Source: Pachysolen tannophilus NRRL Y-2460
Taxonomy: Eukaryota
Length of the DNA stretch: 64,000 bases
Direction: 5' to 3'
Assembly: GCA_001661245.1 (NCBI GenBank)
Contig: KV454017.1
Span: 487,061-551,060 of the forward strand
The notes under the pieces are model-generated. The model was given only the letters and a program-made list of their open reading frames with translations, was not told the DNA's origin and made no database searches. Positions 1 to 63,104 of the stretch are shown here, piece by piece (the first letter of the stretch is position 1; the number at the start of each line of letters is the position of its first letter). A program made the translations under genes and the position numbers.

Positions 1-1023
1 CAACATCATACATTTCAGCCGCACCAGCAACAACCACTTCCAGCTGTTCAGCCGCCACAATATTTCAACCCATCAGCAAATTATAGTCCGGAATATTATC
101 AGTATTATCAACAATATCCAGTTCCTCAATATTTTCAAGGAATGATGACACAAGCTTCAGCAAATTCACCATATGGGAGATACTATTACCAACCATATCC
201 TTCAAGATATAATTATCCTCCAAATTATTCTCCACATCCGCCTTCAGCTTCATCGAATCAAGTACTTCCTTCATCTAATGAACTTTCAGAAGGGGCAGAA
301 CTGACATCATCAAGAAATACAAGTACAAATTTAAATAATAATAAATTGAGTAAAATTACTAAATCAAGTACAACTTCTGGTGTAACGGATATTGAAAATG
401 TCAGCGGCAAAAATAATTATAAAGTTAAAAAACCTAAAAAACAACCTAAGGTGAAATTACCACCAAAACAAGAGATAGTGGATAATTCTGGAACTAATAT
501 TCAAAGACCATATCCATGTACTCATGAAGGATGCCTTTGGGCTTTTGCAAGACAAAGTGATTTGAAAAGACATATAAAATCACACATGCCTCCACTGTTT
601 CATTGCCCCTTTTGGAAAAGTGATCCAACGTGTCATAGAAATGGTGGCGCATTCAATAGGTTGGATGTTTTGAAAAGACATCTTAAATTGGTACATTTTG
701 TTCAAGATAAAGATGATTTTTCTACAAGCAGTAGAATTGAAAAAGGTTGGTGTAGATCTTGCCAAAGACAATTTTCTTCCGTTAGAGAGTTTGTCGATCA
801 TTGCGAGACATGTGCTGCAAATTTGCATCCAACAGAATGGAAACAACATTACAGTAACGGCAACAGCAACGGAAACGGTAATAGTCTAACTTCTATAGGG
901 TCAGATATATCAGCAAGAAGAAAACCGAGAATCTCTAAAGCAAAATTGAAATCCAACCAGCAAGAAAGTCCAGAGAGTATCGACGACGTAGAAGCAGAAT
1001 CTGTTGGAGAACAGGTGAGTTAA
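1..1023 (+). CDS. C2H2 zinc-finger transcription factor, Stp1-4-like; 5' end lies outside the window
   Basis: The frame is open from base 1 (Q/P/Y-rich) through the annotated ATG at 142. Fingers CTHEGC..FARQSDLKRHIKSH, FHCPFW..CHRNGGAFNRLDVLKRHLKLVH and GWCRSC..H resemble the Stp1-type finger pattern (HCPFF..CH.SGGFSRRD). Confidence 0.7.
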   Translation, partial: QHHTFQPHQQQPLPAVQPPQYFNPSANYSPEYYQYYQQYPVPQYFQGMMTQASANSPYGRYYYQPYPSRYNYPPNYSPHPPSASSNQVLPSSNELSEGAELTSSRNTSTNLNNNKLSKITKSSTTSGVTDIENVSGKNNYKVKKPKKQPKVKLPPKQEIVDNSGTNIQRPYPCTHEGCLWAFARQSDLKRHIKSHMPPLFHCPFWKSDPTCHRNGGAFNRLDVLKRHLKLVHFVQDKDDFSTSSRIEKGWCRSCQRQFSSVREFVDHCETCAANLHPTEWKQHYSNGNSNGNGNSLTSIGSDISARRKPRISKAKLKSNQQESPESIDDVEAESVGEQVS

Positions 1024-1130
1024 CCAACAACAAAAACTTATTGACTACGATTTTTAAAGGTGTTATATGGATAGATCCTGATGTTTTTGGCGTTATTGTT
1101 TTATTTTATTTGATTTTTTTTTTTTTTTTT

Positions 1131-1946
1131 NNNNNNNNNNNNNNNNNNNNNNNNNNNNNNNNNNNNNNNNNNNNNNNNNNNNNNNNNNNNNNNNNNNNNN
1201 NNNNNNNNNNNNNNNNNNNNNNNNNNNNNNNNNNNNNNNNNNNNNNNNNNNNNNNNNNNNNNNNNNNNNNNNNNNNNNNNNNNNNNNNNNNNNNNNNNNN
1301 NNNNNNNNNNNNNNNNNNNNNNNNNNNNNNNNNNNNNNNNNNNNNNNNNNNNNNNNNNNNNNNNNNNNNNNNNNNNNNNNNNNNNNNNNNNNNNNNNNNN
1401 NNNNNNNNNNNNNNNNNNNNNNNNNNNNNNNNNNNNNNNNNNNNNNNNNNNNNNNNNNNNNNNNNNNNNNNNNNNNNNNNNNNNNNNNNNNNNNNNNNNN
1501 NNNNNNNNNNNNNNNNNNNNNNNNNNNNNNNNNNNNNNNNNNNNNNNNNNNNNNNNNNNNNNNNNNNNNNNNNNNNNNNNNNNNNNNNNNNNNNNNNNNN
1601 NNNNNNNNNNNNNNNNNNNNNNNNNNNNNNNNNNNNNNNNNNNNNNNNNNNNNNNNNNNNNNNNNNNNNNNNNNNNNNNNNNNNNNNNNNNNNNNNNNNN
1701 NNNNNNNNNNNNNNNNNNNNNNNNNNNNNNNNNNNNNNNNNNNNNNNNNNNNNNNNNNNNNNNNNNNNNNNNNNNNNNNNNNNNNNNNNNNNNNNNNNNN
1801 NNNNNNNNNNNNNNNNNNNNNNNNNNNNNNNNNNNNNNNNNNNNNNNNNNNNNNNNNNNNNNNNNNNNNNNNNNNNNNNNNNNNNNNNNNNNNNNNNNNN
1901 NNNNNNNNNNNNNNNNNNNNNNNNNNNNNNNNNNNNNNNNNNNNNN
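1131..1946. other. assembly gap (N run)
   Basis: Run of N preceded by a poly-T tract. Confidence 0.99.
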
Positions 1947-2129
1947 GTACTCAAGTAACTGTAACTCATTCAAATATACGTTCATCTATCCATTCATTCA
2001 GTCATTTTTATCCTTATCTTCTTTTATTTCTTTCTTCTTCCTCTTACATTCATCTTTTAAATATTATATATATAATTATATTTATTTATTTATCTAGAAC
2101 CTTTAGTACTATCCATGTATTATGGGCGT

Positions 2130-2571: not shown

Positions 2572-2578
2572 TTAGTAA
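2572..2578. promoter_or_regulatory. candidate Yap1 response element
   Basis: TTAGTAA about 190 bp upstream of a glutathione transferase. Short motif in AT-rich DNA, so it may be a chance match. Confidence 0.35.
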
Positions 2579-6621: not shown

Positions 6622-8235
6622 ATGATAAATGATAAATGCAAAATAGTGGCGGCTGCCGCTGCAGTTGCCGTTTCGGGCAGTAATACACCTCAATTGATAT
6701 CATCATCTTCACAATCACATCAGCAAATCAATTCAACTTCTGGTGGTGGTGGTGGTGGTAATGGTAATGGTGGTAATGGAGGAAACAGTAGTGGAGGAAA
6801 TGGTAGTGGAAACTCACAATCACAAGTTGTTGGTTTACATTATAAAATTGGTAAAAAAATTGGAGAAGGTTCATTTGGAGTTATATTTGAAGGTTCTAAT
6901 ATGATAAATGGTGCACCTGTAGCTATAAAATTTGAACCTAGAAAGACAGAAGCACCTCAATTAAGAGATGAGTATAGAACCTATAAACATTTGGCTGGTT
7001 CAAAAGGTATTCCAAATGCTTATTATTTTGGTCAAGAAGGTTTACATAATATTTTGGTTATTGATTTATTAGGACCTTCTTTAGAAGATTTATTTGATTG
7101 GTGTGGACGTCGTTTTACTGTTAAAACTGTTGTACAGATTGCTGTACAAATGATTTCATTAATTGAAACTGTTCATGCTCATGATTTAATCTATAGAGAT
7201 ATTAAACCTGATAATTTTCTTGTTGGTAGACCAGGATTAGATGATGAAAATGATGTTCATTTAGTTGATTTTGGTATGGCAAAACAATATAGAGATCCAA
7301 GAACAAAACAACATATACCATATCGTGAAAAAAAATCTTTAAGTGGTACAGCTCGTTATATGTCAGTTAATACTCATTTAGGTAGAGAACAATCAAGAAG
7401 AGATGATTTAGAAGCATTAGGTCATGTTTTTTTTTATTTTTTAAGAGGTCAATTACCATGGCAAGGTTTAAAAGCTCCAACAAATAAACAAAAATATGAA
7501 AAAATTGGTGAAAAAAAGAGAACTACACCAGTTTTAGATTTATGTGCTGGTTTACCAAAACAATTTGCTGTTTATTTAGAAACAGTTCGTGGTTTAGCAT
7601 TTGATGCAGATCCAGATTATAATTCTTTACGTCATTTATTATTAAGCGTATTGGAAGATATAGGAGAATCTGCAGATGGTCAATATGATTGGATGAGATT
7701 AAATGGTGGAAGAGGATGGGATGCTGCCATTAATAAAAAACCAAACTTGCACGGTTATGGCCATCCAAACCCACCAGGTGATAGAGATAGGCGTCATCAA
7801 CAACAAAGAAGATCAAATAGACTGCAACAATCAGCTCCTCAACAACAACAATACTTGCACCATAAGCAAATCAGAGAAAGACCACTTCCTCAACTTCCAC
7901 AACAACAACAGCAACTGCAACAACAACAACAACTTCTGCTGCAACAATCTCTGGCACAACAACAACAATTTTCTTCACTGTCTCCTCAGCAACAACAATC
8001 TTATCAATCACAAAGTCAAAATTTGAGTGTACAACTGCAATTGGGAGACTTACAGCAACAACAAAATTTCCATCAACAACATCAACAACTGCATTTACCA
8101 CAACATCAACAATCAATACCTTATATATCTCAGCATGAACTGCTGATTGATGGACAGCCTCAATTCCAACAAAAACAGACGAAACACGAACACGATGAAG
8201 AAGAGGATAATAAAAAAACTTGTTTTTGCTTTTAA
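6622..8235 (+). CDS. YCK2: casein kinase I, Yck1/Yck2 type, with Gly/Asn-rich N-terminus and polyQ C-terminal region
   Basis: [76 protein letters not shown] and a Cys-containing C-terminus. The exact start is uncertain (see findings). Confidence 0.92.
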   Translation: MINDKCKIVAAAAAVAVSGSNTPQLISSSSQSHQQINSTSGGGGGGNGNGGNGGNSSGGNGSGNSQSQVVGLHYKIGKKIGEGSFGVIFEGSNMINGAPVAIKFEPRKTEAPQLRDEYRTYKHLAGSKGIPNAYYFGQEGLHNILVIDLLGPSLEDLFDWCGRRFTVKTVVQIAVQMISLIETVHAHDLIYRDIKPDNFLVGRPGLDDENDVHLVDFGMAKQYRDPRTKQHIPYREKKSLSGTARYMSVNTHLGREQSRRDDLEALGHVFFYFLRGQLPWQGLKAPTNKQKYEKIGEKKRTTPVLDLCAGLPKQFAVYLETVRGLAFDADPDYNSLRHLLLSVLEDIGESADGQYDWMRLNGGRGWDAAINKKPNLHGYGHPNPPGDRDRRHQQQRRSNRLQQSAPQQQQYLHHKQIRERPLPQLPQQQQQLQQQQQLLLQQSLAQQQQFSSLSPQQQQSYQSQSQNLSVQLQLGDLQQQQNFHQQHQQLHLPQHQQSIPYISQHELLIDGQPQFQQKQTKHEHDEEEDNKKTCFCF

Positions 8236-8249
8236 AAAAAAAATTTACC

Positions 8250-8498
8250 NNNNNNNNNNNNNNNNNNNNNNNNNNNNNNNNNNNNNNNNNNNNNNNNNNN
8301 NNNNNNNNNNNNNNNNNNNNNNNNNNNNNNNNNNNNNNNNNNNNNNNNNNNNNNNNNNNNNNNNNNNNNNNNNNNNNNNNNNNNNNNNNNNNNNNNNNNN
8401 NNNNNNNNNNNNNNNNNNNNNNNNNNNNNNNNNNNNNNNNNNNNNNNNNNNNNNNNNNNNNNNNNNNNNNNNNNNNNNNNNNNNNNNNNNNNNNNNNN
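8250..8498. other. assembly gap (N run)
   Basis: Run of N. Confidence 0.99.
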
Positions 8499-9416
8499 AA
8501 AAAAATCTTTAAGTGGTACAGCTCGTTATATGTCAGTTAATACTCATTTAGGTAGAGAACAATCAAGAAGAGATGATTTAGAAGCATTAGGTCATGTTTT
8601 TTTTTATTTTTTAAGAGGTCAATTACCATGGCAAGGTTTAAAAGCTCCAACAAATAAACAAAAATATGAAAAAATTGGTGAAAAAAAGAGAACTACACCA
8701 GTTTTAGATTTATGTGCTGGTTTACCAAAACAATTTGCTGTTTATTTAGAAACAGTTCGTGGTTTAGCATTTGATGCAGATCCAGATTATAATTCTTTAC
8801 GTCATTTATTATTAAGCGTATTGGAAGATATAGGAGAATCTGCAGATGGTCAATATGATTGGATGAGATTAAATGGTGGAAGAGGATGGGATGCTGCCAT
8901 TAATAAAAAACCAAACTTGCACGGTTATGGCCATCCAAACCCACCAGGTGATAGAGATAGGCGTCATCAACAACAAAGAAGATCAAATAGACTGCAACAA
9001 TCAGCTCCTCAACAACAACAATACTTGCACCATAAGCAAATCAGAGAAAGACCACTTCCTCAACTTCCACAACAACAACAGCAACTGCAACAACAACAAC
9101 AACTTCTGCTGCAACAATCTCTGGCACAACAACAACAATTTTCTTCACTGTCTCCTCAGCAACAACAATCTTATCAATCACAAAGTCAAAATTTGAGTGT
9201 ACAACTGCAATTGGGAGACTTACAGCAACAACAAAATTTCCATCAACAACATCAACAACTGCATTTACCACAACATCAACAATCAATACCTTATATATCT
9301 CAGCATGAACTGCTGATTGATGGACAGCCTCAATTCCAACAAAAACAGACGAAACACGAACACGATGAAGAAGAGGATAATAAAAAAACTTGTTTTTGCT
9401 TTTAAAAAAAAAATTT
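8499..9416 (+). repeat. copy of the YCK 3' half (matches 7329-8246, offset 1170); probable unmerged contig overlap
   Basis: Identical by eye, including synonymous sites and the polyQ tract. It begins exactly at the gap edge and lacks the kinase N-lobe. Confidence 0.9.
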
Positions 9417-11950: not shown

Positions 11951-13303
11951 ATGAAAAAAATGAACCAAATGGGGATAATTGGTCGTGCTCCGCTTACCAG
12001 AAATCTTAGAAAATATTCCTTATTTAGGAAGGCGGCGGTGGTGCTAGCGCCGCACGATATGGTGCAAATGCATATGGTGCATATGGTGCATACGGTGAAG
12101 ATGGTGAAGCCGATGTTTAGTCTGAGGCGAGGTTATAAGGTTTTAGCGATAGAAAGTTCATGCGATGACTCGTGTGTTGCGCTTTTGGATAGGGATGATA
12201 AGTTGAATCAGACAATAGTGGTTGATCAGTTAAAATCTACACTTGATTCTGCTGGTTCAGGAGGTGTTATACCAACAGCTGCTCATTTACATCATCAAGA
12301 AAACCTTTCGAAACTAGTTTCCAGTTTGTGTATGAAACACGGATTATCCCATAAGAGTCCTCCTGATTTGATATGTGTAACACGAGGTCCAGGAATGCCT
12401 GGATCTCTTAGTATTGGAACAGAATTAGCTAAAGGTTTAAGTATAGCATGGAATAAACCTCTTATTGGAGTGCATCATATGTTGGGACATCTTTTAATTC
12501 TGAGATTGCAAAACAATGGCAAAAGTCCAGAATTCCCATTTTTAAGTTTGTTGGTAAGTGGTGGGCATACGTTATTGGTACTTTCACGTAATTTATTACA
12601 ACATGATATTTTGGTTGATACTTTAGATATAGCTGCAGGAGATGCCTTGGATAAATGTGCTAGAGAAATTGGTATTAGTGGGAACATGATTGGAAAAGAA
12701 TTAGAAAAATTTCTTGAAGAAAATAGGAATTTCTTAACACAAGAAATATTATCAAAATATAAAGATATTGAATTTACAATGCCATTGAGAAATAAACCAG
12801 GAAGATCAAATTTAGAAAAATTCTCATTTGCTCCATTTTCAGGTCAAACAAAAAAAATTTTAGCAAATAAAAGAAATGAAAATTTGAATATGAATTTGAA
12901 CTCGGATTTGGATTTGAATTTGGAGTTCAAAACTATTTTAGGTTTTAAAATTCAAGATTCAATTTTTAAACATTTATTGGAAAAAATACAATTATCGTTG
13001 AAATTAGATAATTTTAAAGAACTGGATAATAAAATTTTTACAAACGTTAAAGAATTTGTTTGTTCTGGTGGAGTAGGATCAAATTTATATTTAAGAAAAT
13101 TGTTAAAAGAAGGTTTACCTGCATTTGAAAAATTTCATTTTCCCGATCCAAAGCTTTGTACTGATAATGCAATAATGATTGGATGGGCAGGAATTGAATT
13201 ATATGAAAAGTACGGACTCACAAGTGATCTTAGTATAACTCCACTTCGTAAATGGCCATTAACTAATATCACAGATGTTGATGGATGGATTAAAAAAGGA
13301 TAA
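11951..13303 (+). CDS. QRI7: mitochondrial tRNA N6-threonylcarbamoyltransferase (Kae1/TsaD family)
   Basis: YKVLAIESSCDDSCVA, VTRGPGMPGSL, GVHHMLGH, SLLVSGGHT, GDALDKCARE, CSGGVGSN, CTDNAIMIGWAG; Arg-rich N-terminal presequence; convergent with NSE4 as in S. cerevisiae. Confidence 0.93.
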   Translation: MKKMNQMGIIGRAPLTRNLRKYSLFRKAAVVLAPHDMVQMHMVHMVHTVKMVKPMFSLRRGYKVLAIESSCDDSCVALLDRDDKLNQTIVVDQLKSTLDSAGSGGVIPTAAHLHHQENLSKLVSSLCMKHGLSHKSPPDLICVTRGPGMPGSLSIGTELAKGLSIAWNKPLIGVHHMLGHLLILRLQNNGKSPEFPFLSLLVSGGHTLLVLSRNLLQHDILVDTLDIAAGDALDKCAREIGISGNMIGKELEKFLEENRNFLTQEILSKYKDIEFTMPLRNKPGRSNLEKFSFAPFSGQTKKILANKRNENLNMNLNSDLDLNLEFKTILGFKIQDSIFKHLLEKIQLSLKLDNFKELDNKIFTNVKEFVCSGGVGSNLYLRKLLKEGLPAFEKFHFPDPKLCTDNAIMIGWAGIELYEKYGLTSDLSITPLRKWPLTNITDVDGWIKKG

Positions 13304-17767: not shown

Positions 17768-18076
17768 ATTGCAAAGATATTGATAAACATAATTTCCATA
17801 GGAGATCCAATTCTCTGTTATGTCCATCAAGAAAGATTATATATGAAATACAGAACTTTATTTAAATAAAAAAAAATTTCTTTTTAAAAGAATATTAAAT
17901 TAAAAATGTATAATATATATAGTAAGATATATAATAACCAAAAACTTGTAAAAGTCTCTAATATCTATACACTTAAGAATATGATGCAAGAAGAAATAGA
18001 AATAGTGAAACTCTTGGATTTCAATTAAAAAAAAAAAAAAAAAGCTATTTTTTGTTATGAACTTGTTCCTTGTTTC

Positions 18077-22064: not shown

Positions 22065-22130
22065 ATGAATGAATAATATGGGATATATAATGTTTGAATC
22101 TCTTTTAATTTATTTTTTTTTTTTTTTTTT

Positions 22131-25146: not shown

Positions 25147-26967
25147 TTACACACTTCCACCAGTACCACCATGGTTACCAGCCAATCCGACCATTTCCAA
25201 AAATGCTCTTTCTTCACCAAGGTTCTTTATATTAACTCGCTGACGAGCTTCCAGTTCTCTTTTCTCCCACTCCCAACTCTTTATTTGTTCTTGGATTTCC
25301 TTATCTGAACCCACCCCAAATACTTCGATATCGCTTATTGTAAATTTGTCTTCATATTCAGGAGTTATGCTATTCAGTGAGTGTGGTACGCTCTCGGATG
25401 GAAGTTTATTGAATCCAGATCCAGTGTTGAAAGAGCCTCCAATTCCAATATGTCTGAAACAACAAAATTCCAAACCACCATCAATTAAAAGGCTTACATT
25501 TCCTGGATGGTACTTCTTGATACCATTTTTAATCTCGGGCAAATTACAACCAAATCCTATACCTCCATTATTTAATGTATTGAAATAAGCATAGCTATTT
25601 TGAAATAAAGAAGATTCGAATAATTGTTGTTGAGGAGCTAACTGGAAAATTAAAGTTTTGGAATCTCCAAAAGGTTCTTTATTACTAATTTTCCAAGCAT
25701 GGTGCAAATAAACGCCATATGTTAATCTTTCTGAGCCTTCACCATATATTTTACTTGGATTCTCAGGAGATCTCCTAAACTTTGGATATTCTTCATTAAT
25801 AAAAGTATCGCATCTTTTTGAAATTTTTTTTTTATTGGGTTCAATTCTATGGCCACTCACTAATAAAATAGTTGGAGCTTTCCATCCAAATACTTTTGAT
25901 TCAAATGATCTCATTGAAAACCCAGAATCTTTACCAACGTAAAGTTTTTTCATATTTGTATAGCAAAGGTTCAGCGGTAAGAATGTTGCCAATTGACTAA
26001 GAGTAAACTCATTTACTAGTCTAGTCATTTCTATTTCAATTTTTGGTACAAGGGTTTCACATAAAGGTGGAGAAACCGAATGTTCCATGAACAACAACGG
26101 ACTTAACAATGCAGTGAATGGTTGGAAAATGTTTGCAAATGTTGTCGCGATACAGTAATTAACTCTGGTTATTGATAAATCATAATTATCGATATTAGTT
26201 GAATTAATATTATATTCAATTGTTTTCATCAAGCAATAAGCAATTTTCTTGTATTTTGACCAATTTTCAAATTCAGATTTAAATTTATTTAAACGAAAGA
26301 ATTTGAACTGATCAAGTGATAGGCGGGTTGCGCAAAGACAAAATGTAAAAATTTTCAATAATACAGAAGCAGGGATAATCAAATTATCTATATCCAAGCT
26401 CGAATAATAATCTATGGATGACCATGACAATTTATTATTTATTAAAGTTGCATCATAAACGTCATTTGAAGAAGAATGAATAAATAGTTTTTCCTTGTCA
26501 TGATTATATGGAAGACAAAAACAAACCAACAATAATTTGACATATTCAAATTCTTTATTAAAAATTGCATTGAATCTTGATCGATCCAACAAATTAATAG
26601 CCTTGATCAACATAATAGAATCAATTCCATTATTTTTACAATGTCCATCTAATATAGGGAAAGAACCCAAATTAATAATAAACTTGAAAAGAATTTCCGA
26701 TATTTCCTCATCATTTTCTATCAATCCTTCCAAAGAAACAAGCTTCTTGAATTCTTCACAGTTATTGATTAACTTGTCATCATTCAAATCACTAATTCGT
26801 AAGTTTGCCTTGATCGAATATATTTCAATCTGTTGTAAAGTAGATAAAGATTTCTTAAGGAATAAGTTGTTCAAATCTGTCAACGTTAACTTGATTATTT
26901 TTTTCTGAGACTGACCATCCACATAAGAACCTCCATTTTCACCATCACTACTAAGCAGCTGTCCCAT
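25147..26967 (-). CDS. RTC5: TLDc-domain protein Rtc5 (predicted N-myristoylated)
   Basis: MGQ..S start, KLYVGKDSGFSMRSFESKVFGWKAPTILLVSG, GGIGFG, DIEVFGVG, WEWEKRE.EARQRVNIKNLGEERAFLEMVGL. Confidence 0.9.
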   Translation of the reverse strand: MGQLLSSDGENGGSYVDGQSQKKIIKLTLTDLNNLFLKKSLSTLQQIEIYSIKANLRISDLNDDKLINNCEEFKKLVSLEGLIENDEEISEILFKFIINLGSFPILDGHCKNNGIDSIMLIKAINLLDRSRFNAIFNKEFEYVKLLLVCFCLPYNHDKEKLFIHSSSNDVYDATLINNKLSWSSIDYYSSLDIDNLIIPASVLLKIFTFCLCATRLSLDQFKFFRLNKFKSEFENWSKYKKIAYCLMKTIEYNINSTNIDNYDLSITRVNYCIATTFANIFQPFTALLSPLLFMEHSVSPPLCETLVPKIEIEMTRLVNEFTLSQLATFLPLNLCYTNMKKLYVGKDSGFSMRSFESKVFGWKAPTILLVSGHRIEPNKKKISKRCDTFINEEYPKFRRSPENPSKIYGEGSERLTYGVYLHHAWKISNKEPFGDSKTLIFQLAPQQQLFESSLFQNSYAYFNTLNNGGIGFGCNLPEIKNGIKKYHPGNVSLLIDGGLEFCCFRHIGIGGSFNTGSGFNKLPSESVPHSLNSITPEYEDKFTISDIEVFGVGSDKEIQEQIKSWEWEKRELEARQRVNIKNLGEERAFLEMVGLAGNHGGTGGSV

Positions 26968-27276: not shown

Positions 27277-29307
27277 ATGGCTAAGGATAATAAGAAGATT
27301 ATCAAAGATGAGCGTTTTAGCTCTATGTATAACGATTTTAAATTCAAGCCGCCTAAAACCAAGAATTTGAAGGTAAAAGTTGATGATAGATTCAGTAAAG
27401 ATGAATTAGACATTTATAAGAAAAAGGCAAAGGTTGACAGATATGGAAGAAAGATTAAAGAAGACGGTGGTAAAAACAAAGATTTTGAAAAATTTTATGA
27501 GATGGAGAAAGAAGAAAAAGAAAAATCTGAGAAGGAATCTTCTGATGAACTGGAAGACGATGAACGTGAATTAAAGGTTGATGCAGTTGATACAATTGAT
27601 AAATCTGAATCCACATCGGAATCGGAATCCCAATCCGAATCAGATTTGGAATCTGAATCAGAATTAGAAGGTTTGGATAGAGCGAGAGGAGAAGGTTTGG
27701 AGTCATCTTCAGATGAAGATGAGGATTCAAGTGTTTCTTCTGAGGAAGAAGAGGTTGAAGAATCTGACGGTGAAACAGAAGTTGAAATAGAAGATTCCAA
27801 GCCAGAAGAAGGTGAACCAACTTATAGATTTGCTGTTGTCAACATGGATTGGGATAATGTGAAGACGGATGATTTATTTGCCACTTTCAGTTCTTTTTTA
27901 CCTGTTGGAGGGTCTATTAAAGATATTTCAATTTATCCTTCTGAATTTGGAAAAGAAAGAATGCAAAAAGAAGAACTTGAAGGTCCTCCAAGAGAATTAT
28001 TTAAGAAATCTTCCTCGTCATCTAAGAAGGGAAAGGATAATAAAAACAATGATGAAGAAAGTGAGAGTGAGAGTGATTCAGATGTTTCAGATTTAGAAGC
28101 TGCTGCTAAAAAATTATATGAAGATGACGATGGTAAAGAGGATTACGATTCAAAAGCATTACGTCGTTACCAATTGCAAAGACTTCGATACTATTATGCT
28201 GTTGTTACTTGTGATTCAGTTGCCACAGCACAAAATATCTATCAGAATTGTGATTCTACAGAATACGAATCTACTGCAAATTTGTTTGATTTAAGATATA
28301 TACCAGATGATATGTCATTTGAAGATGAAGAGCTGACCCAGAAAACAACAAGATTAGGCAAAAATTATAAACCTACTCCTTTTGTCACTGATGCTTTACA
28401 ACATTCTAAAGTTAAGTTAACTTGGGATGAGACACCAGCTGAGAGAATACAATTATCAAATAGATCTTTTACTCAAAGAGAAATTGAAGAAATGGATTTC
28501 AAAGCATATCTAGCTAGTGATTCAGATGAAGAAAGTGAAAATGGTGCAGGTGACTTGAAAAATAAGTATAAACTGTTGCTGGAGAGCAGTGGTAAGATTG
28601 GTAACAAGAGTATTTTCGGCGGTGCTGCCCATGAAGAAGATGATGGAGATGTTGATTTTGAAGTCACATTCACACCTGGATTAGCAGAAGGATCTAGACA
28701 GAAGGAGGATACAAACAAAGAAGAAACAACTGTTGAAAAATTGAGAAGAAAAGAAAAAGAAAGAAGAAAGAAGAGAAAGGAAAAAGTTAAAGAAATCAAG
28801 AAACAACAGGATGAAGGACTCAAAGAAAAGAAGAAGGAACTTTCAAGTTCCAAAAGGAAAACTAGTAAAGATCATACAAGTAGTAAGGATGATGAACCTG
28901 ATAATAAAGCAGAATTAGAATTACTAATGATGGACGATCAATCGGATGAACAAAAGAATCATTTCAACATGAAAGATATAATAAAAGCCGCAAAATCGCA
29001 ACACAAGGGTAAGAAACATAACAAGAAGAAGAATTACGACGAAGAGAATCTTCAAGCTGATTTCAAACCTGATTTAAGTGATGATAGATTTAATGAAATA
29101 TTTGAAAATCATGAATTTGCTATAGACCCAACAGCACCACAGTTTAAGAAAACCGCTATCATGAGTCAAATCATTGCGGAAAAAAACAAGAGAAGAAAAG
29201 ACGATAAAAAGGAATCTAAGGGAAACGTTAACAAGAAACACAAGAAGGGTACTACCAGTAGTAACGAATTAGATTCATTGGTGGGGAGATTAAAGAATAA
29301 ACATTAA
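27277..29307 (+). CDS. ESF1: pre-rRNA processing protein Esf1
   Basis: DERFS, KVDRYGR, RFAVVNMDWDNV, IYPSEFGKERM..EE.EGPP, LRRYQLQRLRYYYAVV, ALQHSKVKLTWDET, NUC153 DDRF..IFENHEFAIDPT. ATG at 27277. Confidence 0.95.
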   Translation: MAKDNKKIIKDERFSSMYNDFKFKPPKTKNLKVKVDDRFSKDELDIYKKKAKVDRYGRKIKEDGGKNKDFEKFYEMEKEEKEKSEKESSDELEDDERELKVDAVDTIDKSESTSESESQSESDLESESELEGLDRARGEGLESSSDEDEDSSVSSEEEEVEESDGETEVEIEDSKPEEGEPTYRFAVVNMDWDNVKTDDLFATFSSFLPVGGSIKDISIYPSEFGKERMQKEELEGPPRELFKKSSSSSKKGKDNKNNDEESESESDSDVSDLEAAAKKLYEDDDGKEDYDSKALRRYQLQRLRYYYAVVTCDSVATAQNIYQNCDSTEYESTANLFDLRYIPDDMSFEDEELTQKTTRLGKNYKPTPFVTDALQHSKVKLTWDETPAERIQLSNRSFTQREIEEMDFKAYLASDSDEESENGAGDLKNKYKLLLESSGKIGNKSIFGGAAHEEDDGDVDFEVTFTPGLAEGSRQKEDTNKEETTVEKLRRKEKERRKKRKEKVKEIKKQQDEGLKEKKKELSSSKRKTSKDHTSSKDDEPDNKAELELLMMDDQSDEQKNHFNMKDIIKAAKSQHKGKKHNKKKNYDEENLQADFKPDLSDDRFNEIFENHEFAIDPTAPQFKKTAIMSQIIAEKNKRRKDDKKESKGNVNKKHKKGTTSSNELDSLVGRLKNKH

Positions 29308-35200: not shown

Positions 35201-38200
35201 TAGAAGCAAAAAGATTAGCAGAAAATAATCAAATTGTTGATGGTGCTAATAAGAAGCCGCATTTTAGTATTCGTACATTGACAAGAACATTGCTATATGT
35301 TTGCGATATTGTTTCAATTTATGGATTACGTAGATCTTTATACGAGGGTTTTTCAATGAGTTTCACAACTCTTTTAGATGCCGACTCAGAAAAAATATTG
35401 AAACCAATTATAGAGAAATATACAATTGGCAGGTTAAAAAATCAGAAATCAGTGTTGAGTCAGATACCACCAAATCCTTCATCACCAGATGATCAGTATG
35501 TTCAATTCAGACACTATTGGATGAAACATGGGCCTAATGAATTAAAACCACAACCACATTATATTATAACACCTTTTGTCGAGAAAAATATGTTGAACTT
35601 AGTAAGGGCTACTAGTGGAAGACAATTTCCAGTTTTGATTCAAGGGCCAACATCAAGTGGTAAAACCTCAATGATAAATTATTTAGCAAATATAACGGGT
35701 CACAAATTTGTAAGAATTAATAATCATGAACATACTGATTTGCAAGAATATTTGGGATCATATATAAGTGACCAGACAGGTAAATTAGTATTCAAAGAAG
35801 GAATATTGGTTGAAGCTTTAAGAAAAGGTTACTGGATTGTTTTAGATGAATTGAACTTAGCACCAACAGATGTTTTAGAAGCATTGAATAGATTATTGGA
35901 TGACAACAGAGAATTATTGATACCTGAAACTCAGGAGGTTGTTCATCCTCATCCTGATTTTATGTTGTTTGCTACACAAAATCCTCCTGGGCTTTATGGA
36001 GGTAGGAAGATTTTATCGAGAGCTTTTAGAAACAGATTTTTGGAACTACACTATGATGATATTCCACAGGATGAATTAGAAACTATATTGAAAGAAAGAT
36101 GTCAGATAGCTCCATCTTATTGTAAAAAAATAGTGGAAGTTTACAGACAGTTGACCATTCAACGACAATCTACGAGATTATTCGAGCAGAAGAACTCTTT
36201 TGCAACTTTAAGAGACTTATTTAGATGGGCTGAAAGGGAAGCCATTGGATACGATCAGTTAGCTCTGAATGGTTACATGTTGCTTGCTGAAAGAGTAAGA
36301 AGAGAAGATGAAAAGCTGCTAGTTAAGCAAGTGTTAGAGAAAGTTATGAAGGTAAAATTGAATATGGCAGAATATTATCGTAGCTTAGAAAACGAGGATT
36401 TGATAAACTCTGCGAGTGATGTTATTTGGACGAAAGCTATGCGTCGTTTATCAGTGCTAGTGATAAGTGCTTTAAGAAACAATGAACCAATATTGTTGGT
36501 CGGTGAGACCGGCTGTGGAAAGACTACAATTTGTCAATTAATTGCTGAATTTACTAAGAAAAAGTTGATAACTGTAAATGCACATCAAAATACCGAGACT
36601 GGAGATATTTTAGGTGCACAAAGGCCTATGCGTAATAGATCAGAAATACAGCAGAAGATAACTTCAAAAATTATAGAAGTTTTCAGCACTGAGGGTATTG
36701 AATATGAAAATGACGACAAGCACGATTTTGATAAACTTTATAATAAGTTTTTACTGGTTTCATCTTTTGGGAAAGTAGACTCTGCTTTGATTGATGAGAT
36801 TAAAAAATTAAACCAATCATTGCGAGTTCTTTTTGAATGGTGTGATGGTCCTTTGATTCAAGCTCTTGAAAGTGGTAATTTCTTTTTGTTAGATGAAATC
36901 TCACTAGCTGATGATGCAGTCTTGGAAAGATTAAATTCAGTATTAGAGCCAGAAAGAAGCCTTTTATTGGCTGAAAAGGGAACCACAGATGCATTAATAG
37001 TTGCCAGTGATGGATTTGAATTTTTGGCAACTATGAATCCAGGAGGTGACTACGGTAAGAAGGAATTATCCCCTGCATTAAGAAATCGTTTTACTGAAAT
37101 ATGGGTTCCATCTATGGACGACTTCGAAGATGTTAGACAAATAGTTGGAAGCAAGTTAGTACCTCAAGCAAAGAGTTTATGTAAACCTTTGGTATCATTC
37201 GCCGAATGGTATGGTAAAAAATTTGGAGGCGGAGATACATCCAATGGTGTAATTTCATTAAGAGATATCCTTGCTTGGGTTCAATTTATTAACTCATCGC
37301 TTTTCAAAATTGGAAATGCTAACCTGTGTTTGTTACATGGAGGTTGTATGGTATTTATTGATTCTCTTGGTACTAATAATACCGCTTTCTTAGCAGAGAA
37401 CGAGGAAAATTTAAGAAAACAAAAGCTTGAGTGTCTGAAAATGTTATCGGATTTGGTGAATGAGGACTTGATTAAATATTACTCAGATTCTCCTTCTGTT
37501 TCATTACAGGACAAAACACTTAAATGTGGTTTATTTGAAATACCGCGTTTACCAGATACTGAGTCATCTGCTTCTTTCAATTTAGAAGCGCCAACAACAG
37601 CTACAAACGCCATGCGTGTAGTAAGAGCCATGCAAGTTCTGAAACCGATTTTATTAGAAGGTAGTCCTGGTGTAGGAAAAACTTCGTTAATTTCCGCTTT
37701 AGCAGCAGCCACGGGCAATAAGTTAACACGTATAAATTTGTCAGAACAAACTGATTTGATTGACTTGTTTGGATCGGATGCTCCAGCAGAAGGTGGTAAT
37801 ACCGGAGAGTTTGCTTGGCGTGATGCCCCGTTTTTAAGGGCAATGCAAAAAGGTGAGTGGGTTCTATTAGATGAAATGAATCTTGCTTCTCAATCTGTAT
37901 TGGAAGGTCTAAATGCGTGTCTAGATCATAGAGGTGAGGCATATATTCCTGAATTGAATAAATCATTTAACCGTCATGAAAATTTTGTTGTTTTTGCTGC
38001 TCAAAATCCACAATATCAGGGTGGTGGAAGGAAGGGTTTGCCAAAGTCATTTGTTAATCGTTTCACAGTTGTTTATGTCAATATGTTGACTTCTGTTGAT
38101 TTAAATTTAATTTCGCATCACATATATCCAAATATTGACCCCGATATTTGTTCGAAGATGATTGAATTTATTTCTAAGTTAGAAGAAAATGTAGTTATCA

Positions 38201-41200
38201 AAAAGAAATGGGGTTCTTTGGGTTCACCATGGGAATTTAATTTGAGAGATACTTTACGTTGGTTAGAGTTGTATAATTCACCTGGTATTTCGGAATCTTT
38301 ACATCCAGGTGATTTTCTAAACATTATTGTGGAACAAAGATTTCGTTCTAAATCCGATAGAGAAGAAGTTAGAAAGTTATATCAAAGCATTTTTGGTGAA
38401 ATTCTGTTAGACAATCCTTACTATGTCATAGGAGAAAAGTTCTTACAAATAGGACGTGAAATTATTCTGAGAAAAGAATTAATTCTGTATGGCGTCAACA
38501 ACTGTCTCTTTCCATTACAGTGCACTTTGAATGTTTCAGAAACAGTCCTTACTTGTATCAATCGTTCATGGCCTTTAATTATTGTTGGGAAAACGAATTC
38601 TGGTAAAACAGAGTTGATTAAATTTATTGCGAGTGTCGTGGGAGTAAAAGTAGAAGAGTTCTCCATGAATAGTGATGTTGATAGTATGGATATCTTAGGT
38701 GGCTATGAGCAAGTTGATTTCACAAGAATTATTTCCCAATTATGTTCAGAATTACAGGAAGTTTTACTCAACTTAACGGCAATTAATTTGAGGTCTTCCA
38801 CAAGTGAACCAGCTATAATAGCACGAGTTCTTGACTTATTAAGCTACGTTACTTATAATTCAATTGACACTTCTAATTTTGGTGAACTTATGGAGAATTT
38901 GAACTCTTTTATGAATTTCACTAACAATACTGAGCTATTCAAAATTCTTGAAAAAGGAAAATCATTGTTGAAACGCATTCATGAAAACAGTGGTGTAAAG
39001 TTTGAATGGTTTGATGGCCTTTTGGTTCAAGCAGTTGAAAAGGGAAGTTGGCTTATATTGGATAACGCTAATCTCTGTAGTCCCTCTGTCTTAGATAGAT
39101 TAAACTCTTTGTTAGAGCCAAATGGGTCATTGATTATAAACGAATGTAGTGCTGAGGATGGCTTGCCCAGATGCATAAAACCACATCCAAACTTTCGGTT
39201 GTTTTTGACTATGGATCCGAAACACGGAGAACTATCCAGAGCTATGAGAAATAGAGGTGTAGAAGTATTTGTCGAAACTATTGATGAATGCGCTACCCCT
39301 TATGATCGTGAAGTTTTAGGATACGGAAGACCATATGATACAGAAAATGAAGATATAGATAATAAGCTATCACAATTGGTAATTAATGTTTCTGTGGGAA
39401 AACCAGTAAGCTCATTCTTATGCCCACTGGATTCCATTTTTAGAAGTTACTGTATATTGCTTGATGTTTTTGAGATGTCAAACGCTGCAACAAGAAACCA
39501 GCTTGTTAACATAGTAACTAGTACTTTACCATTTTCACTGCTTAGATCAATTGATAGATTTTCTGAAGTAGTTACTTTATCAACTGAATTTTTTTCATTT
39601 TTGAAAACTTTTGTTAGTGGTGTTCGAGAGCGTTATATGTTCATGGAAAAACTTGATCTTCTAAAAAACTTATACGGTTTATATGAATCTCCGTCCAAAC
39701 GTGCTGCTATGCTAGTGGGTTGTGAAATTGATTATAGCGATTATCAGACACCGAATATACTCATAAATCGTCAGTTACTTTTGTCTCTCATCGAGAAAGG
39801 AAGTAATCTCAACTCTAGCGAACATATTTATCTCTTTGAGTTGGCTTTTGGTATTTTTGAAGCCTCTTTATTGATTTCGAAGTTGGATGAAAGGGCTTCC
39901 AATTCAAAAGTTAATGAACTTAATTACTTGGAAAGGTCTGCTGCATTTAGCTGTGGAAGGAATATAAAACGTCCTCTGCGTTTAAATGTTTACAGTTTAC
40001 TTAAAGCACTCAGCAGCTACATAAGCGACACTTTTTCCACAATTTCGTCCTCTGATTTAATTTTTGAATCTGAATCATTGTATAGCTCTTTATTTGAGCT
40101 TCAAATGCTTTGGAGAAGATTCTATGAAAATTCTAAGTTCCAGGATGAATCAAAATTACGTGTATACCAAGAGTTAATTTCAAACTGGATTGAAATAAAT
40201 AAATCCAATCAATTCTTCGGTATATATTTGAAGAATTTCTTGAACGCAGTCAACGATTTCAGCCAAAAGTTGGCCTTAAAAACAGGAACATCGATAGGTA
40301 GAATTTGGGAACATTTCAGATCAGCATATCCATCTTCTGAGCAAGCTTGGATCAATAGAGAATCCATTGATAGACTTGCTGACGAATTTGATGAGGTCGC
40401 ATATGAACAATTTTCTGATTCAGCAAAAATGGTGCATGACTTACGAATTCTTATATTGCAATTATATGATGAAGCATCGACAGATGTAGAGATTTCGAGT
40501 GAATTAGTTGAAAATTTGTCCGGAAGTATTGCTCAATTGAAAGAAATTTCTTCAAAATTTTTGAATAAGAGAATTCATATTTTTGAGTTCGAATTTACGT
40601 TGTTGTTGAATTTTATGGAATGCTCTTCAATTACCAATAATGAAGATTTGGTTCTTAGTAATGATTTTTTGACCTCCAGTCTTCAATCCAAAAAACATAC
40701 TACATCCATGACTAGATATAGAAAAGAAATTTATAAACCGTACCCAATTATTTTTGACTCTCTCTGGAAGTTGAAAAATGAGGACTATATTTCATTTGTC
40801 AGAGGATTATTCATGGATGAATTTGTTGTCAGTAGTTTGAAGAAGTGTCTGAATATCACAAATATACCAGGAACTCAACTTAACCAAGCATTAGATGATA
40901 TTTCTCAGTTGGGATCATTGTTGGTTAACCAGTCATCTTCTATATTACTGGACCAGATGGAAAATTTCAAAAATTTACTCATCGGATGGGTTTCTGAGTT
41001 ATGCTCTTTACACTTATCGGTCAAAGACCTGGAAATATTGAAGTCACTACTCTTTGTCGATTCACCTAAAGATGTAAATGTTGACAAGATTTTTGAAATT
41101 ATTCAGTTCCTGAATGATGAAAATTTTATAAATATTTTTAAAAGGTTTTTTGCTCCTTCATTATGGTTGCTTCTATCAAATATCAACACTCTGGAAAATC

Positions 41201-44200: not shown

Positions 44201-47200
44201 CATGGATAGATACTGGAAAGATTTCAGAAGTTGCATCTTCTAATTATTCACAAATTCCATTTAACGCAAGTGATTTAGAAAAAGTTGAGAAGGCTTTCCG
44301 TGATTTGACTACCTCAGTTATTCTTTCTGTACAAAATATTGTATCATTGCGGAAGTCAGAGTCAATTTCCGTAGAAAACGATAATTGGTTCCTTGAATCG
44401 CAGCAGAGATTGAGTTCATATATTCAGTTGCTAAATGGAAAACGTATTAAACTGAGATTAACCAAGTGCTTAGATGTAATTTTTGAGATACAACATAACG
44501 AGATAACATCAGGGATATGTTCCACAATTTGTGCTGCTATATCACCTTTACTTTCTCACTACTCCAACTTAGCATCGTTAATTTTGAATAATGCTAAACA
44601 AAACTATATCGAAACTTCTCATTCAACATTTATTTTATCATCTATTCTTCATAAATTGGCAACAGAAGGATTTTGCTCTCCTGAACCACAACAACAGTCA
44701 AAAGAAAAGGATGACCTACAAGATGGTACCGGTTTGGGTGAAGGAGAAGGTGAAACAAATAATTCGAAAGATGTTGAGGATGATGAAGATCTTTCAGAGC
44801 ATGCACAGAAGGAAAATGAAAAGAATAAAGATGACGGCGACGACGACAACGGCGACGATGACGCCGTTAGCATTGAAGGTGACATGGCTGGCGATTTGGA
44901 GGAGGCACCTGATGCTGAAGATGATGAAAATGATGAAGATAAACTGGATGAAGATTTAGATGAAGAAATAGATGATATTGATGACTTGGATCCGAATGCT
45001 ATTGATGAAAAGATGTGGGATGAAGAGACAAAAGAAGATACTAAACAAAAGGACTCAGATAAAATGCCTCAAAATTCGAACGAAGATGATGAACTTCAGG
45101 CAATGGATGAAGAGAATGAGAAGGAAAAGAGAAATGAAACTGAGGATTTAAACAAAGATGAAGAAGCACAAGAAAATTCACAAGAGAATGATGAGAATGG
45201 AGATGAAGAAGAGCAAGAAGGAGAAGAAGAAGAAGGAGTTGGTGAACAAGAAGATGAAATCAAAAACAAAGATGACGAGAAGATGGAGGCAAATGCTGAT
45301 GAAAGTGAAGCTTTGGAACTTTCCGATGACATGCATTTGGATTCCTCTGAGGAAGATAACTCTAATGCAGAAGATTCAGAAAGTTTTGATGACAAAATGA
45401 ATTCGGATGAGGAAATAGATATGGATGAAAATAAGGAGGAGATGATGGAAAACAACGAAATTGAAGAACCTTTACCGACTGATGAAGTTAAAGCTGAGAG
45501 TGATGAAGATCATAATATTGAATCTGAAGATGAAAGAGATGATGATCAATTGAATAAGGATGAAAAAGATGAAACCATGGAAGGAGCAGAATCAGATATG
45601 GAGTTACTTGACAAAGAGGAGGAGGAAACCGAATCGAACGAAGCTAATAAAAATGAAAATGCAGCTCAAGGTTTAGAACAGTCTGGTCAACAAGATGAAG
45701 TCAAAGCTGATGAAGCATCAGCAAAACAAAAATCTGGACAAGAAGAAGAAGGAGCCAACGCGGAAACCCAAGAGGAAAAACAAGATATTGGTGCAAGTGG
45801 TACCGCCCAATTTCAACAAGACAATCAAGAGGAATCTGAAAGTAATGCGGATGAGGCTCGTGATATGGCTCGCCAATCATTAAAACAACTAGGTGATTCA
45901 TTAAAGGAATTTCATCGCCGTCGTCAAGAAATAAAAGAAGCTAGTGAACAAGATGACTTGTCAGAAAATCTGGCAAATAAGAGACCAGATGAATTTCAAC
46001 ATATTGAAGGTGAAAACACAGAATTTGATACTCAGGCATTAGGAGCTGCTAGTAAGGATCAAATTCAAACTATAAACGAGGATATGGCGGTCGACGATGA
46101 TCTTGAACAAAAAGAAGAAAATGATGCCGAGCAGGATCTAAATATGGAAGATGATAGAAAAATGGATATGGATGAAGCTCAAAATGTTGAATCTCCAGAA
46201 CTTCAAGACCCTACAGAAGATTTCAACGGGCAAAGTAAAACAGCATTTGTCGGGGACAGAAACAAATTTGACGAATTTTCCGACTTGGAGACCCTCAAAG
46301 CTGAGAACATTATTGAAGATGATACTGACTTCAAAGATGATTTAGAAATATCAAAAGATAATCATCCTGATAAAATATTCAGATCATTAGAAGAAGCTCA
46401 CGATCTTTGGAGACAAAGTGATATTGCCACACAAGAATTATCGGCAGGATTAACTGAACAGTTGCGTTTGATATTGGAGCCAACATTAGCTACGAAATTA
46501 CGTGGTGATTATAAAACTGGAAAGAGGCTTAATATGAAAAGAATAATTCCTTACATTGCGTCACAATTCCGAAAAGATAAAATTTGGTTAAGACGTACAA
46601 AACCAAGCAAACGTCAATATCAAATCATGATCGCAGTTGATGATTCTAAGTCTATGTCAGAAAGTAAATCTGTTGATTTAGCTTTCAAGAGTATTGCTTT
46701 GGTTTCAAAAGCGTTAACTCAATTAGAATCTGGTGCCTTATCTATTGTGAAATTTGGTGAATATACCGAAGTGGTACATCCTTTTGATAAGCTGTTTACT
46801 GCTGATACTGGTGCTAAGATATTCCAAAGCTTCGATTTTGGTCAGACGCGTACCGACATTAAAAAATTGGTTAGCCAATCCATCAAATTATTTGATGATG
46901 CTCGTGCTTCAGGCAATTCGGATTTATGGCAGTTGGAAATCATATTATCAGATGGTGTTTGTGAAGATCATGAAACTGTTCAAAGATTAGTCAGAAGAGC
47001 AAGAGAAAATAAGATAATGCTTGTTTTTGTAATCATAGATGGTATTAACTCTAGTGAATCAATATTAGACATGAGTCAAGTAAGCTACGTTCCTGATGCA
47101 AGCGGAAAAATGGTTTTAAAAGTTGATAAATATTTAGACACTTTTCCATTTGAATTCTACGTTGTTGTTCATAATATTAATGAGTTGCCAGAAATGCTTG

Positions 47201-47244
47201 CAATTATATTGCGTCAATACTTTTCTGAATTAGCATCAATGTGA
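32280..47244 (+). CDS. MDN1: midasin / Rea1 AAA+ ATPase for 60S maturation; exon 1 coding part ATGA (32280-32283), exon 2 32366-47244
   Basis: Six AAA modules (Walker A GKAGSGKT, GETGTGKT, GPTSSGKT, GETGCGKT, GSPGVGKT, GKTNSGKT), long linker, D/E-rich region, C-terminal MIDAS/VWA (DDSKSM, SDG); about 4960 aa. Confidence 0.97.
32284..32365 (+). other. spliceosomal intron at the MDN1 start (82 nt)
   Basis: ATGA|GTAAGT ... poly-T ... TACTAAC (32337-43) ... TTTTAG|AA ATG. The spliced product ATG AAA ATG AAT is in frame. Confidence 0.85.
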
Positions 47245-60343: not shown

Positions 60344-60770
60344 TTAAACCTCTATGATATATAAATAACACAGATCAAAATATCATTATAATTCTAATTA
60401 ATTAAATTGTAATTGATATAGTCTATTATACTGATTTCATACCAATTATATAAAATGATATTTATCTACTAATAATACTATATATATAGTTCGTATATCT
60501 CGACACGACAAATAACATTAATTAACATTATGATAATAAGATGAAATGGAAAATGGTAAAGTAAAGATTTAATTAATAATACACAATAAGATCAAAACCA
60601 AGAAAGGAAGAGAAAAAGAAATAGAATAAAAGGTCCATTAGCCAAATAAACAAATATTATATGGTAATCATAAATTGGATAAAAACAAAAACCAGAAACA
60701 AAAAGATAAAAAAAAAAGATAACTAAAATGAAATGAAATGAAATAAAATAAAAGTAAAAATGAAAAACAA

Positions 60771-63104
60771 TTATTTTTTAACGCCATTAACTAATGCAGG
60801 AACATTATTCTTATTGTTGACAATGTTCCCGCTGTTGCTATTATTATTATTATTACTATTAGCACCATTGCTAATACTATTATTGGTACTGTTGCTGTTG
60901 TTGTTGTTGTTGTTGTGATGATGATTGCCATGTAGTGCTTGGAAATAGTTTCGGTATTGTTGTTGCATGTTATGTAATGATTTTGATAATATCATGGATC
61001 CAAACCTTATTGATTGTGTTTGTGAAGAGATATTGTTTAAACGACTTGGATCAAGACTAACGTCTATTGAAGACATTGACTTGTTATCGAAAAACCAACG
61101 AGTTTTCAATCTTAAAGACAGGTCACTTTTGCAGTCATAAACATTTGGAATACGTTGTTTCTTGCGCGGAGGCTCATTAATTTCGTCGTTAGTGATGGTT
61201 TCGGTATTTGTTTCCTTAGGTTCAGATTCATTTTCAGGTACGGGTTCAAGTACCAGTTCAGATACGGGTTTGGGTTCTGGTTCTGGTTCTGGTTCTAATT
61301 GGGGTTCGATTTCATCTTCAGAATCTGTGAATGATAAAAACTCGTCAATTTCGTCATGAGGTCTTTTTAATTTACGATCGCAGTACATGATACCTGATCT
61401 TCCAATTCTTTTCTTGAGTTGCATAATAGGTTCCGAAACATTAATTTTCTCATCACTGATGAGTTGATAATATTCTGGAGCAGGTGCTGGAATCAAATCA
61501 CCATTTGAAGAGTTGAATGCCAACATGTTTGGTAAGCACTCCTTGCGTTTGATTAAATCAGACAATTCCTCATCTATAAAATGCAGAGCTTTGACATCAT
61601 ATAAAGCCGTTGTTATTGAAGAAAAGGGTACATTGGATTGCTCAATAACTTTACGATACGGTTGTTCAATATCGAAAAATGGATTATATGGGTCATCAGT
61701 AATATTGACCCAACCCGCATCTTGTTCTTGTCTTCTTTTCAATTTTTCAGAAACTGCTCTTACTATTGCACTTTCCTTCTCGTTTAATATTGCTTGAACT
61801 GTGACAAGATCCATATCAGGTATTTTTGAAGTAGGTAACCTCACATATGGTTGAATAGTACCACCCAGAGCAAGTAATTGTTTCTTGGCAATATCTGTTT
61901 TCTGTGATTGCAGTACTTGATTTTGTTGATTAAGATTACTTGTATGTAAAGGTGGTCTTCCAAGTTTAGCCTTTTCTGGTTTAGATGTATCTTTAATTTC
62001 ATCTCTTTTTATTTCAGGAGGAGGAATAATTTTTTTCTTTTTATGTGGGATCAAATCTTCTTCTTCACCTTTAATACCTAATTTCCTTTTAACTTCTTTA
62101 ACTTGAGATCTTAAATTAAAAATATTTTTTTCTATTTTCAAAGCATTATACCTTTTAGCTTCTCTAAGAGCACACATATAAACCAATTCTCTTGCATTTT
62201 TTAATTCTATATATAATTTGTGTAAACTTTCAGAATTTTGTAAATCTGATTTTCTTGTCTTTCTAACACTTCTTATAGTTCTATGTCTAAAACAAATATA
62301 AGGATCAGAATCATTATTTTCATTTGGATCTTCAAATCTTAAAGCAGGGAAAATTGGCCGTCCATTTCTTGCTAATCTTCTTTCTTTCCAATGTTTATAA
62401 ACTTTTTCACCATATTTATCAAGTAAATCTTTTAAAATTCTTGGTTGTTTCCCATCAATTGGTTCAGCATCAAATAAAGTTTTAAAATTATGTAATTTTA
62501 ATTCATTTTGTAAACTTTTTGCTATATCCAGTTTTGAATTTTCATTTAAAGCATAAGATTTAATTTCTTCATATGAAAATATACTTTGTGGATCTGTTTC
62601 TAAAAAAGGTTGTTTATCATTTATAACTTTTTCAAAATTATATGAAATTATTTCAAATTCTGATTCTGTTAATTTAATATTATCCAGTGGTAAAGATGAA
62701 TTTAAAATTTTTAAAAAAATTTCATCTTCTTCATCCATATTATATGGACAACCACATGTATCTTCAACTGTTGCTGAAAATTTGATATACGTTGCAGGTA
62801 AAACAAACGTTCCAGTATAATATTTAGAAGCTTCTGGCCATGTCTTGGAAGCATCAGGTGTTGGAATATAAACTTGTTCTACTTGAGAACCTGCAATCTT
62901 AGCACGAGCCGCATTGATAACTTTTTGTAAATGTTCTTCCTCTTCTTCCCCCTTTTCCACCCCAGTCTCAATCTGTTGTAACTCTCTCTGTTGATCTTCT
63001 GTTTCTAAATCAGGAAGATCACTCTGTTTTAAAACTTGTAAAGTCTGCTTAACAGAAATCTTTCGCTGTCTAAAACGAGCACCTGCAGAAGATGGAGGTG
63101 CCAT
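60771..63104 (-). CDS. EPL1: Enhancer of polycomb-like, NuA4/piccolo subunit
   Basis: ARFRQRKISVKQTL, IETGVEKGEEEEEHLQ, YIPTPDAS, YIKFSATVEDTCG..YNMDEEDE, DPYICFRHR, PYVRLPTSKIPD, DPSRLNNISSQTQSIRFGSM. Confidence 0.95.
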   Translation of the reverse strand: MAPPSSAGARFRQRKISVKQTLQVLKQSDLPDLETEDQQRELQQIETGVEKGEEEEEHLQKVINAARAKIAGSQVEQVYIPTPDASKTWPEASKYYTGTFVLPATYIKFSATVEDTCGCPYNMDEEDEIFLKILNSSLPLDNIKLTESEFEIISYNFEKVINDKQPFLETDPQSIFSYEEIKSYALNENSKLDIAKSLQNELKLHNFKTLFDAEPIDGKQPRILKDLLDKYGEKVYKHWKERRLARNGRPIFPALRFEDPNENNDSDPYICFRHRTIRSVRKTRKSDLQNSESLHKLYIELKNARELVYMCALREAKRYNALKIEKNIFNLRSQVKEVKRKLGIKGEEEDLIPHKKKKIIPPPEIKRDEIKDTSKPEKAKLGRPPLHTSNLNQQNQVLQSQKTDIAKKQLLALGGTIQPYVRLPTSKIPDMDLVTVQAILNEKESAIVRAVSEKLKRRQEQDAGWVNITDDPYNPFFDIEQPYRKVIEQSNVPFSSITTALYDVKALHFIDEELSDLIKRKECLPNMLAFNSSNGDLIPAPAPEYYQLISDEKINVSEPIMQLKKRIGRSGIMYCDRKLKRPHDEIDEFLSFTDSEDEIEPQLEPEPEPEPKPVSELVLEPVPENESEPKETNTETITNDEINEPPRKKQRIPNVYDCKSDLSLRLKTRWFFDNKSMSSIDVSLDPSRLNNISSQTQSIRFGSMILSKSLHNMQQQYRNYFQALHGNHHHNNNNNNSNSTNNSISNGANSNNNNNSNSGNIVNNKNNVPALVNGVKK

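Follow-up and report, generated by a model that had tools for sequence, protein, structure and literature searches.

CTG codons of a 64-kb window of Pachysolen tannophilus NRRL Y-2460 are absent from conserved leucine positions and fit alanine best

Gene content and CTG usage

The window analysed here is a stretch of 64,000 nucleotides of the yeast Pachysolen tannophilus NRRL Y-2460 (GenBank assembly GCA_001661245.1, contig KV454017.1, positions 487,061 to 551,060), and the question concerns the meaning of the codon CTG (CUG in the transcripts) in its genes. It is almost certainly nuclear DNA of the type strain in which CUG is read as alanine (genetic code table 26). The window has a G+C content of about 30% and carries about 27 real protein-coding genes, of which four were used to examine the code.

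142..63104, no strand assigned: coding region with about 27 real genes and 99 unique in-frame CTG codons (109 when the assembly duplicate 8499-9416 is included)
25147..26967, minus strand: RTC5 (TLDc domain), 4 CTG codons
27277..29307, plus strand: ESF1, 4 CTG codons
32280..47244, plus strand: MDN1 (midasin), 28 CTG codons; exon 1 at 32280-32283, intron at 32284-32365, exon 2 from 32366
60771..63104, minus strand: EPL1, 7 CTG codons, one of them in a usable alignment column (see below)

CTG accounts for 109 of the 16,736 codons of 29 open reading frames (ORFs), i.e., 6.5 per 1000, and for 4.9% of the Leu-box codons, next to 834 TTA, 462 TTG, 228 CTT, 95 CTA, and 44 CTC. An initial annotation, made from the letters alone, had described CTG as uncommon, which these counts confirm, and all six codons that it had located by coordinates are in-frame CTG. 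Further codons ending in G or C are scarce too (CTC 2.6, GCG 2.4, and CCG 2.6 per 1000). The density of CTG in the window agrees with the count given for the published genome in PMC4937558, where 16,824 CUG positions are reported in 5288 predicted Pachysolen proteins.

Identity with public proteins

In the search with the MDN1 ORF (32368-47244, 4958 residues), for which every CTG was replaced by X, the best match (P0001) is 'hypothetical protein PACTADRAFT_71717 [Pachysolen tannophilus NRRL Y-2460]'. Apart from its first two residues, this protein and the MDN1 of the window are the same at all 4958 residues under CTG as Ala, but not under CTG as Leu. The stored proteins of RTC5 (P0121) and ESF1 (P0180) also equal the window with CTG as Ala, and neither Leu nor Ser gives equality. 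The DNA is therefore that of P. tannophilus, by the MDN1 identity, and the organism belongs to the CUG-Ala clade, which comprises Pachysolen, Nakazawaea, and Peterozyma according to PMC5951914; the initial annotation had named the same three genera. The public annotation of P. tannophilus already applies table 26. Ala at the CTG positions of the public proteins is a choice of the annotators and no independent evidence of decoding, so the code was also tested from the sequence.

The first exon of MDN1 apparently has only four bases (ATGA). It is followed by an intron of 82 bases with GTAAGT at 32284, TACTAAC at 32337-32343, and a TAG ending at 32365, and this arrangement explains the two additional N-terminal residues (MK) of P0001.

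CTG in conserved columns

Homologue sets were prepared for the four genes, from which the query itself and duplicates of more than 85% were removed.

MDN1: 120 homologues fetched, 111 non-redundant
RTC5: 59 homologues fetched, 52 non-redundant
ESF1: 120 homologues fetched, 35 non-redundant
EPL1: 150 homologues fetched, 149 non-redundant

Of the 99 unique CTG codons of the window, the column test covers the 43 that lie in these four genes. Columns in which at least 70% of the homologues were aligned were taken as usable, by which 34 of the 43 CTG codons were kept and nine were dropped (six of EPL1, positions 4 and 531 of RTC5, and position 435 of ESF1). Each codon was given a Codetta-like profile log-odds score.

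By this score, 60 of the 61 sense codons were called as their standard residue, with CTG as the sole exception. Its unconditioned log-odds over the 34 columns are -2.1 for Ala, -4.3 for Ser, -13.2 for Gln, and -44.2 for Leu, while the Leu log-odds of the five other Leu codons range from +25 to +437. The 306 columns with at least 80% Leu are occupied in the window by TTA (148), TTG (90), CTT (32), CTA (19), CTC (5), and non-Leu codons (12). CTG is absent from all of them, although other Leu codons stand there 294 times (Fisher p 5.1e-9) and 14.5 CTG codons were expected (P(0)=3.5e-7), just as had been claimed from the sequence alone. Under table 1, CTG should share the Leu columns with the five other Leu codons, which it does not, and the conserved-Leu counts together with the Leu log-odds, i.e., the column statistics of the window itself, decisively exclude Leu as its meaning.

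When the scores were conditioned on column variability, Ala obtained +8.4, Gly -8.2, Ser -14.3, and Leu -36.0. Of 5000 random site sets with the same variability, 0.16% gave an Ala score of at least 8.4, and the observed difference between Ala and Ser (22.7) was reached by none of 2000 matched sets of true Ser sites. Ten CTG columns have one residue in at least 50% of the homologues, and this residue is Ala in four of them and in none Ser or Leu. CTG stands in 2 of 114 columns with at least 80% Ala, in 0 of 104 with at least 80% Ser, and in 1 of 109 with at least 80% Pro. Ala is the best-fitting meaning of the CTG columns, being first in both scorings (p ~0.002 against random sites), and this fit rests on about four to six columns, mainly on the following four.

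25252..25254, minus strand: RTC5 residue 572, nearly invariant Ala column (Ala in 49 of 50)
28333..28335, plus strand: ESF1 residue 353, majority Ala (Ala 20, Pro 7, Val 3 of 35)
36265..36267, plus strand: MDN1 residue 1300, nearly invariant Ala column (Ala in 108 of 111)
37324..37326, plus strand: MDN1 residue 1653, majority Ala (Ala in 56 of 106)

The RTC5 codon at 25252 and the MDN1 codon at 36265 had both been proposed as Ala positions before the homologues were aligned.

The plurality residue of the 34 usable columns is Lys in six, Ala in five, Ser in five, Glu in four, Leu in three, Asn in three, Val in two, Pro in two, and Asp, His, Gln, and Gly in one each. CTG strongly favours variable columns, and the most variable fifth holds 18 of the 34. 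In these alignments, CTG typically occupies a variable, polar position and not an Ala position. The proposal that CTG sits where homologues have Ala or another small residue is therefore right for some columns (Ala and Ser, five each) and wrong for most, which are variable and polar (Lys, Glu, and Asn as above). In the closest relatives (47-56% identity), the residues found at the CTG positions are Ala 19, Ser 15, Gln 14, Val 12, Lys 12, Pro 11, and Leu 5, a tally that is consistent with Ala but not decisive.

Besides the origin of Ala in the public records, several results of the column test weigh against Ala. Six of the ten strong CTG columns are Val, Gln, Pro, Pro, Glu, and Asn. Without conditioning, Ala leads Ser by only 2.2 nats in the window alone, and the 28 CTG columns of MDN1 taken alone give Ser -4.5, Gln -5.0, and Ala -5.1, all within 0.6 nats; since MDN1 was not able to separate these three residues, the three other gene families were added. 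The conditioned score leans to Ala by construction, as random site sets free of signal were called Ala in 3203 of 5000 draws, with negative scores. Matched true Ala sites give a difference between Ala and Ser of 54.6 +/- 7.5, far above the observed 22.7, so the CTG sites are no ordinary Ala sites. If the four strongest Ala columns are left out, Gly (-2.0) is slightly ahead of Ala (-2.6).

Individual CTG sites

Other CTG codons of the window stand at positions where homologues are divided or prefer another residue.

MDN1 residue 300: Val 45, Ala 29, Ser 19 of 109
MDN1 residue 1690: Val in 80 of 111
MDN1 residue 2040: Gln in 75 of 111
39976..39978, plus strand: MDN1 residue 2537, nearly invariant Pro (106 of 111), a mismatch under Ala, Ser, or Leu
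MDN1 residue 3228: Glu 34, Ala 33, Gly 21 of 111
46792-46794, plus strand: MDN1, Pro in 63 of 111
12500-12502: QRI7 residue 184, Pro in 3 of 3 solved Qri7/TsaD chains among the matches listed
18055-18693, minus strand: HPT-like gene (HPT1), with CTG at residue 53, Pro in 3 of 3 Hpt1 chains among the matches listed

The homologous motifs that the initial annotation had cited fared unevenly. At MDN1 42049 (residue 3228), the expected Ala is present and Gly is common as well, but Glu leads. The Ala motif cited for ECM4 at 2902 is wrong, with Lys in 3 of 3 solved structures of Xi-class glutathione S-transferases among the matches listed, and so is the Ala or small residue proposed for QRI7 at 12500, where the solved chains have Pro. 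The CTG of the ESF1 motif KYK[x]L does not stand at an Ala position either (Asn 18, Ser 13, Ala 1 of 34). For the zinc finger at 595, the alignments are weak and generic for C2H2 fingers, with Pro in KLF5 and Val in YY1. All three CTG codons of UBA4 lie N-terminal of every solved-structure alignment listed, and all three of LEU4 fall outside the aligned stretches of the solved-structure alignments, so neither gene gives a usable column. In the solved-structure alignments of NSE4, CTG falls at loop positions of low confidence (Tyr and Ser), again with no usable column. CTG = Ala is correct although several of the cited motifs are wrong.

Published evidence and related codes

The CUG = Ala code of Pachysolen is already published, and no new code is described here. 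A second 2016 report of this code is said to be that of Riley et al. in PNAS. According to PMC4937558, CUG = Ala was discovered in P. tannophilus, by transfer RNA (tRNA) analysis and mass spectrometry. The Pachysolen tRNA(CAG) is described there as clustering with alanine tRNAs, with A73 and a G3:U70 pair and without the long variable arm that marks tRNAs for Ser and Leu. By liquid chromatography with tandem mass spectrometry, 907 CUG positions had full fragment support, 97.2% of them as Ala, and about 80% of the P. tannophilus genes are given as affected (PMC4937558). The Ala reading of CTG proposed in the initial annotation is thus borne out by the public proteins, which are identical under Ala, by the column statistics, which exclude Leu and favour Ala, and by these published data.

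The model put forward in PMC4937558 consists of tRNA loss, codon decay, and capture of the codon by an Ala tRNA. By this route, CTG almost certainly disappeared first from ancestral Leu sites and later came back at sites tolerating Ala. According to the literature, a tRNA of Ala type with anticodon CAG is charged by alanyl-tRNA synthetase through G3:U70 and A73. The lack of CTG at old Leu sites, along with new CTG at tolerant sites, fits this loss-and-capture model. No tRNA gene was found within the 64-kb window by ARAGORN or by Rfam at gathering thresholds.

Compared with the P. tannophilus nuclear code (table 26), the window shows no difference; it comes from the same organism, its CTG codons are off Leu columns and on conserved Ala columns, and the published case thus includes it. 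Evidence from the tRNA and from peptides belongs to the literature; the window itself shows the identity of the organism, the absence of CTG from Leu sites, and Ala as the best-fitting meaning. The CUG-Ser1 code of Candida/Debaryomyces (table 12) is alike in that the same codon has moved off Leu, having disappeared from ancestral Leu sites and returned at others. It differs in that CTG enters columns where Ser is conserved (9 of 80 in each of the homologues P0052 and P0071, against none of 104 in the window), and in the capturing tRNA, which is of Ser type according to PMC4937558. In the CUG-Ser2 clade, which includes Ascoidea asiatica with its stochastic Ser/Leu decoding, budding yeasts have reassigned CUG independently once more (PMC5951914, PMC6041473). 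CUG there means Ser, or Ser and Leu, from competing tRNAs, whereas the published Pachysolen data show a single Ala meaning.

Alternative meanings of CTG

Ambiguous decoding, in which CTG would be read mostly as Ala and to a meaningful extent as another residue, similar to the stochastic Ser/Leu of A. asiatica, is very improbable. It draws on the CTG columns being unlike ordinary Ala sites, on the several CTG codons found where homologues conserve Pro, Val, or Gln, on the 8 CUG positions for which PMC4937558 reports ambiguous peptides and the 18 at which it reports a residue other than Ala, and on the dual decoding that exists in another yeast (PMC6041473). Ambiguity cannot be measured from DNA alone, and the proteomic share of Ala given above was accompanied by an error level at CUG similar to that of the AUG control (PMC4937558). 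The odd column profile is more simply explained by CTG that arrived recently at tolerant sites. At single sites in conserved Pro, Val, or Gln columns (MDN1 residues 2537, 1690, and 2040, QRI7 residue 184, and HPT1 residue 53), residual or context-dependent decoding as a residue other than Ala is improbable. These sites are more probably fixed replacements by Ala through single-base changes from CCG, GTG, or CAG; these codons (for Pro, Val, and Gln) are all one base from CTG, which suggests how new CTG codons arise.

CTG = Ser, as in the Candida clade (CUG-Ser1, table 12) or the Ascoidea/Saccharomycopsis clade (CUG-Ser2), is extremely improbable. Ser has the second-best unconditioned score and equals Ala in the number of plurality columns, but with conditioning it is only third, and the conserved Ser columns free of CTG contrast with the conserved Ala columns, among which the two with CTG are 97-98% Ala. 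Real Ser decoding has a recognisable signature: two MDN1 homologues in standard-code translation (P0052 and P0071), taken as positive control, each carry Leu in 9 of the 80 columns conserved as Ser and in none of the 95 conserved as Ala. The column method does detect CUG-Ser yeasts, and such a signal is lacking in the window, where the lead of Ala over Ser is also beyond all the matched true-Ser sets. The organism, moreover, is in the Ala clade of PMC5951914, and a tRNA(CAG) of Ala identity and Ala peptides at CUG have been reported for it (PMC4937558). P0052 and P0071, which come from a public assembly collection, look like proteins of CUG-Ser yeasts to which the standard code was applied.

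The standard code, with CTG as a Leu codon that is merely rare in an AT-rich genome, might appeal to the low G+C content, the likewise scarce CTC, GCG, and CCG, and the three CTG columns with Leu plurality, but it is virtually impossible and already refuted by the column statistics, in which the still rarer CTC is found in conserved Leu columns and CTG is not and the Leu score of CTG is opposite to that of the other Leu codons, as well as by the public proteins, which equal the window only with Ala, and by the published proteomics (PMC4937558).

Assembly artefacts and other features

Two identical copies of 918 bp lie at 7329-8246 and 8499-9416, with a run of N (8250-8498) between them.

6622-8235: casein-kinase-1 gene, the 3' end of which is copied as a spurious ORF at 8530-9405

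A tandem duplication of the casein-kinase gene was considered and rejected, as identical copies on both sides of an N gap are an assembly artefact; the repeat looks like a product of gap closure or scaffolding. Since ORF 8530-9405 repeats the 3' end of the gene with its 10 CTG codons, the window has 99 unique CTG codons and not 109. The C-terminal tail of the kinase (7800-8235) has 10 CTG codons spread over a Gln-rich stretch of CAA and CAG, and table 26 puts Ala, not Leu, at these 10 positions of the poly-Q tract.

More runs of N are present at 1131-1946, 22131-22544, and 22661. Nearly all of the sequence in the listed ORFs 1101-1985 and 22069-22581 is N, and both were rejected as genes. The alignment of the HPT-like ORF (18055-18693, minus strand) to Saccharomyces cerevisiae Hpt1 is limited to residues 3-161 of 212, and its last approximately 50 unaligned residues may reflect an unrecognised intron or a frameshift near the 3' end.

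Meaning for annotation

The finding serves annotation and not discovery. A window of 64 kb can exclude the standard meaning of a codon with high confidence. It identifies the new meaning with no more than moderate certainty, since codons that have been reassigned are found chiefly at variable sites. As CTG is Ala in P. tannophilus, an ORF track in the standard code misreads every CTG, and the initial annotation was right that the track supplied with the window was mistranslated throughout at this codon. ORF tracks made with table 1 or 11 put Leu for Ala at 99 sites of the window, and table 26 is needed for downstream searches, for structure predictions, and for expression in other hosts.

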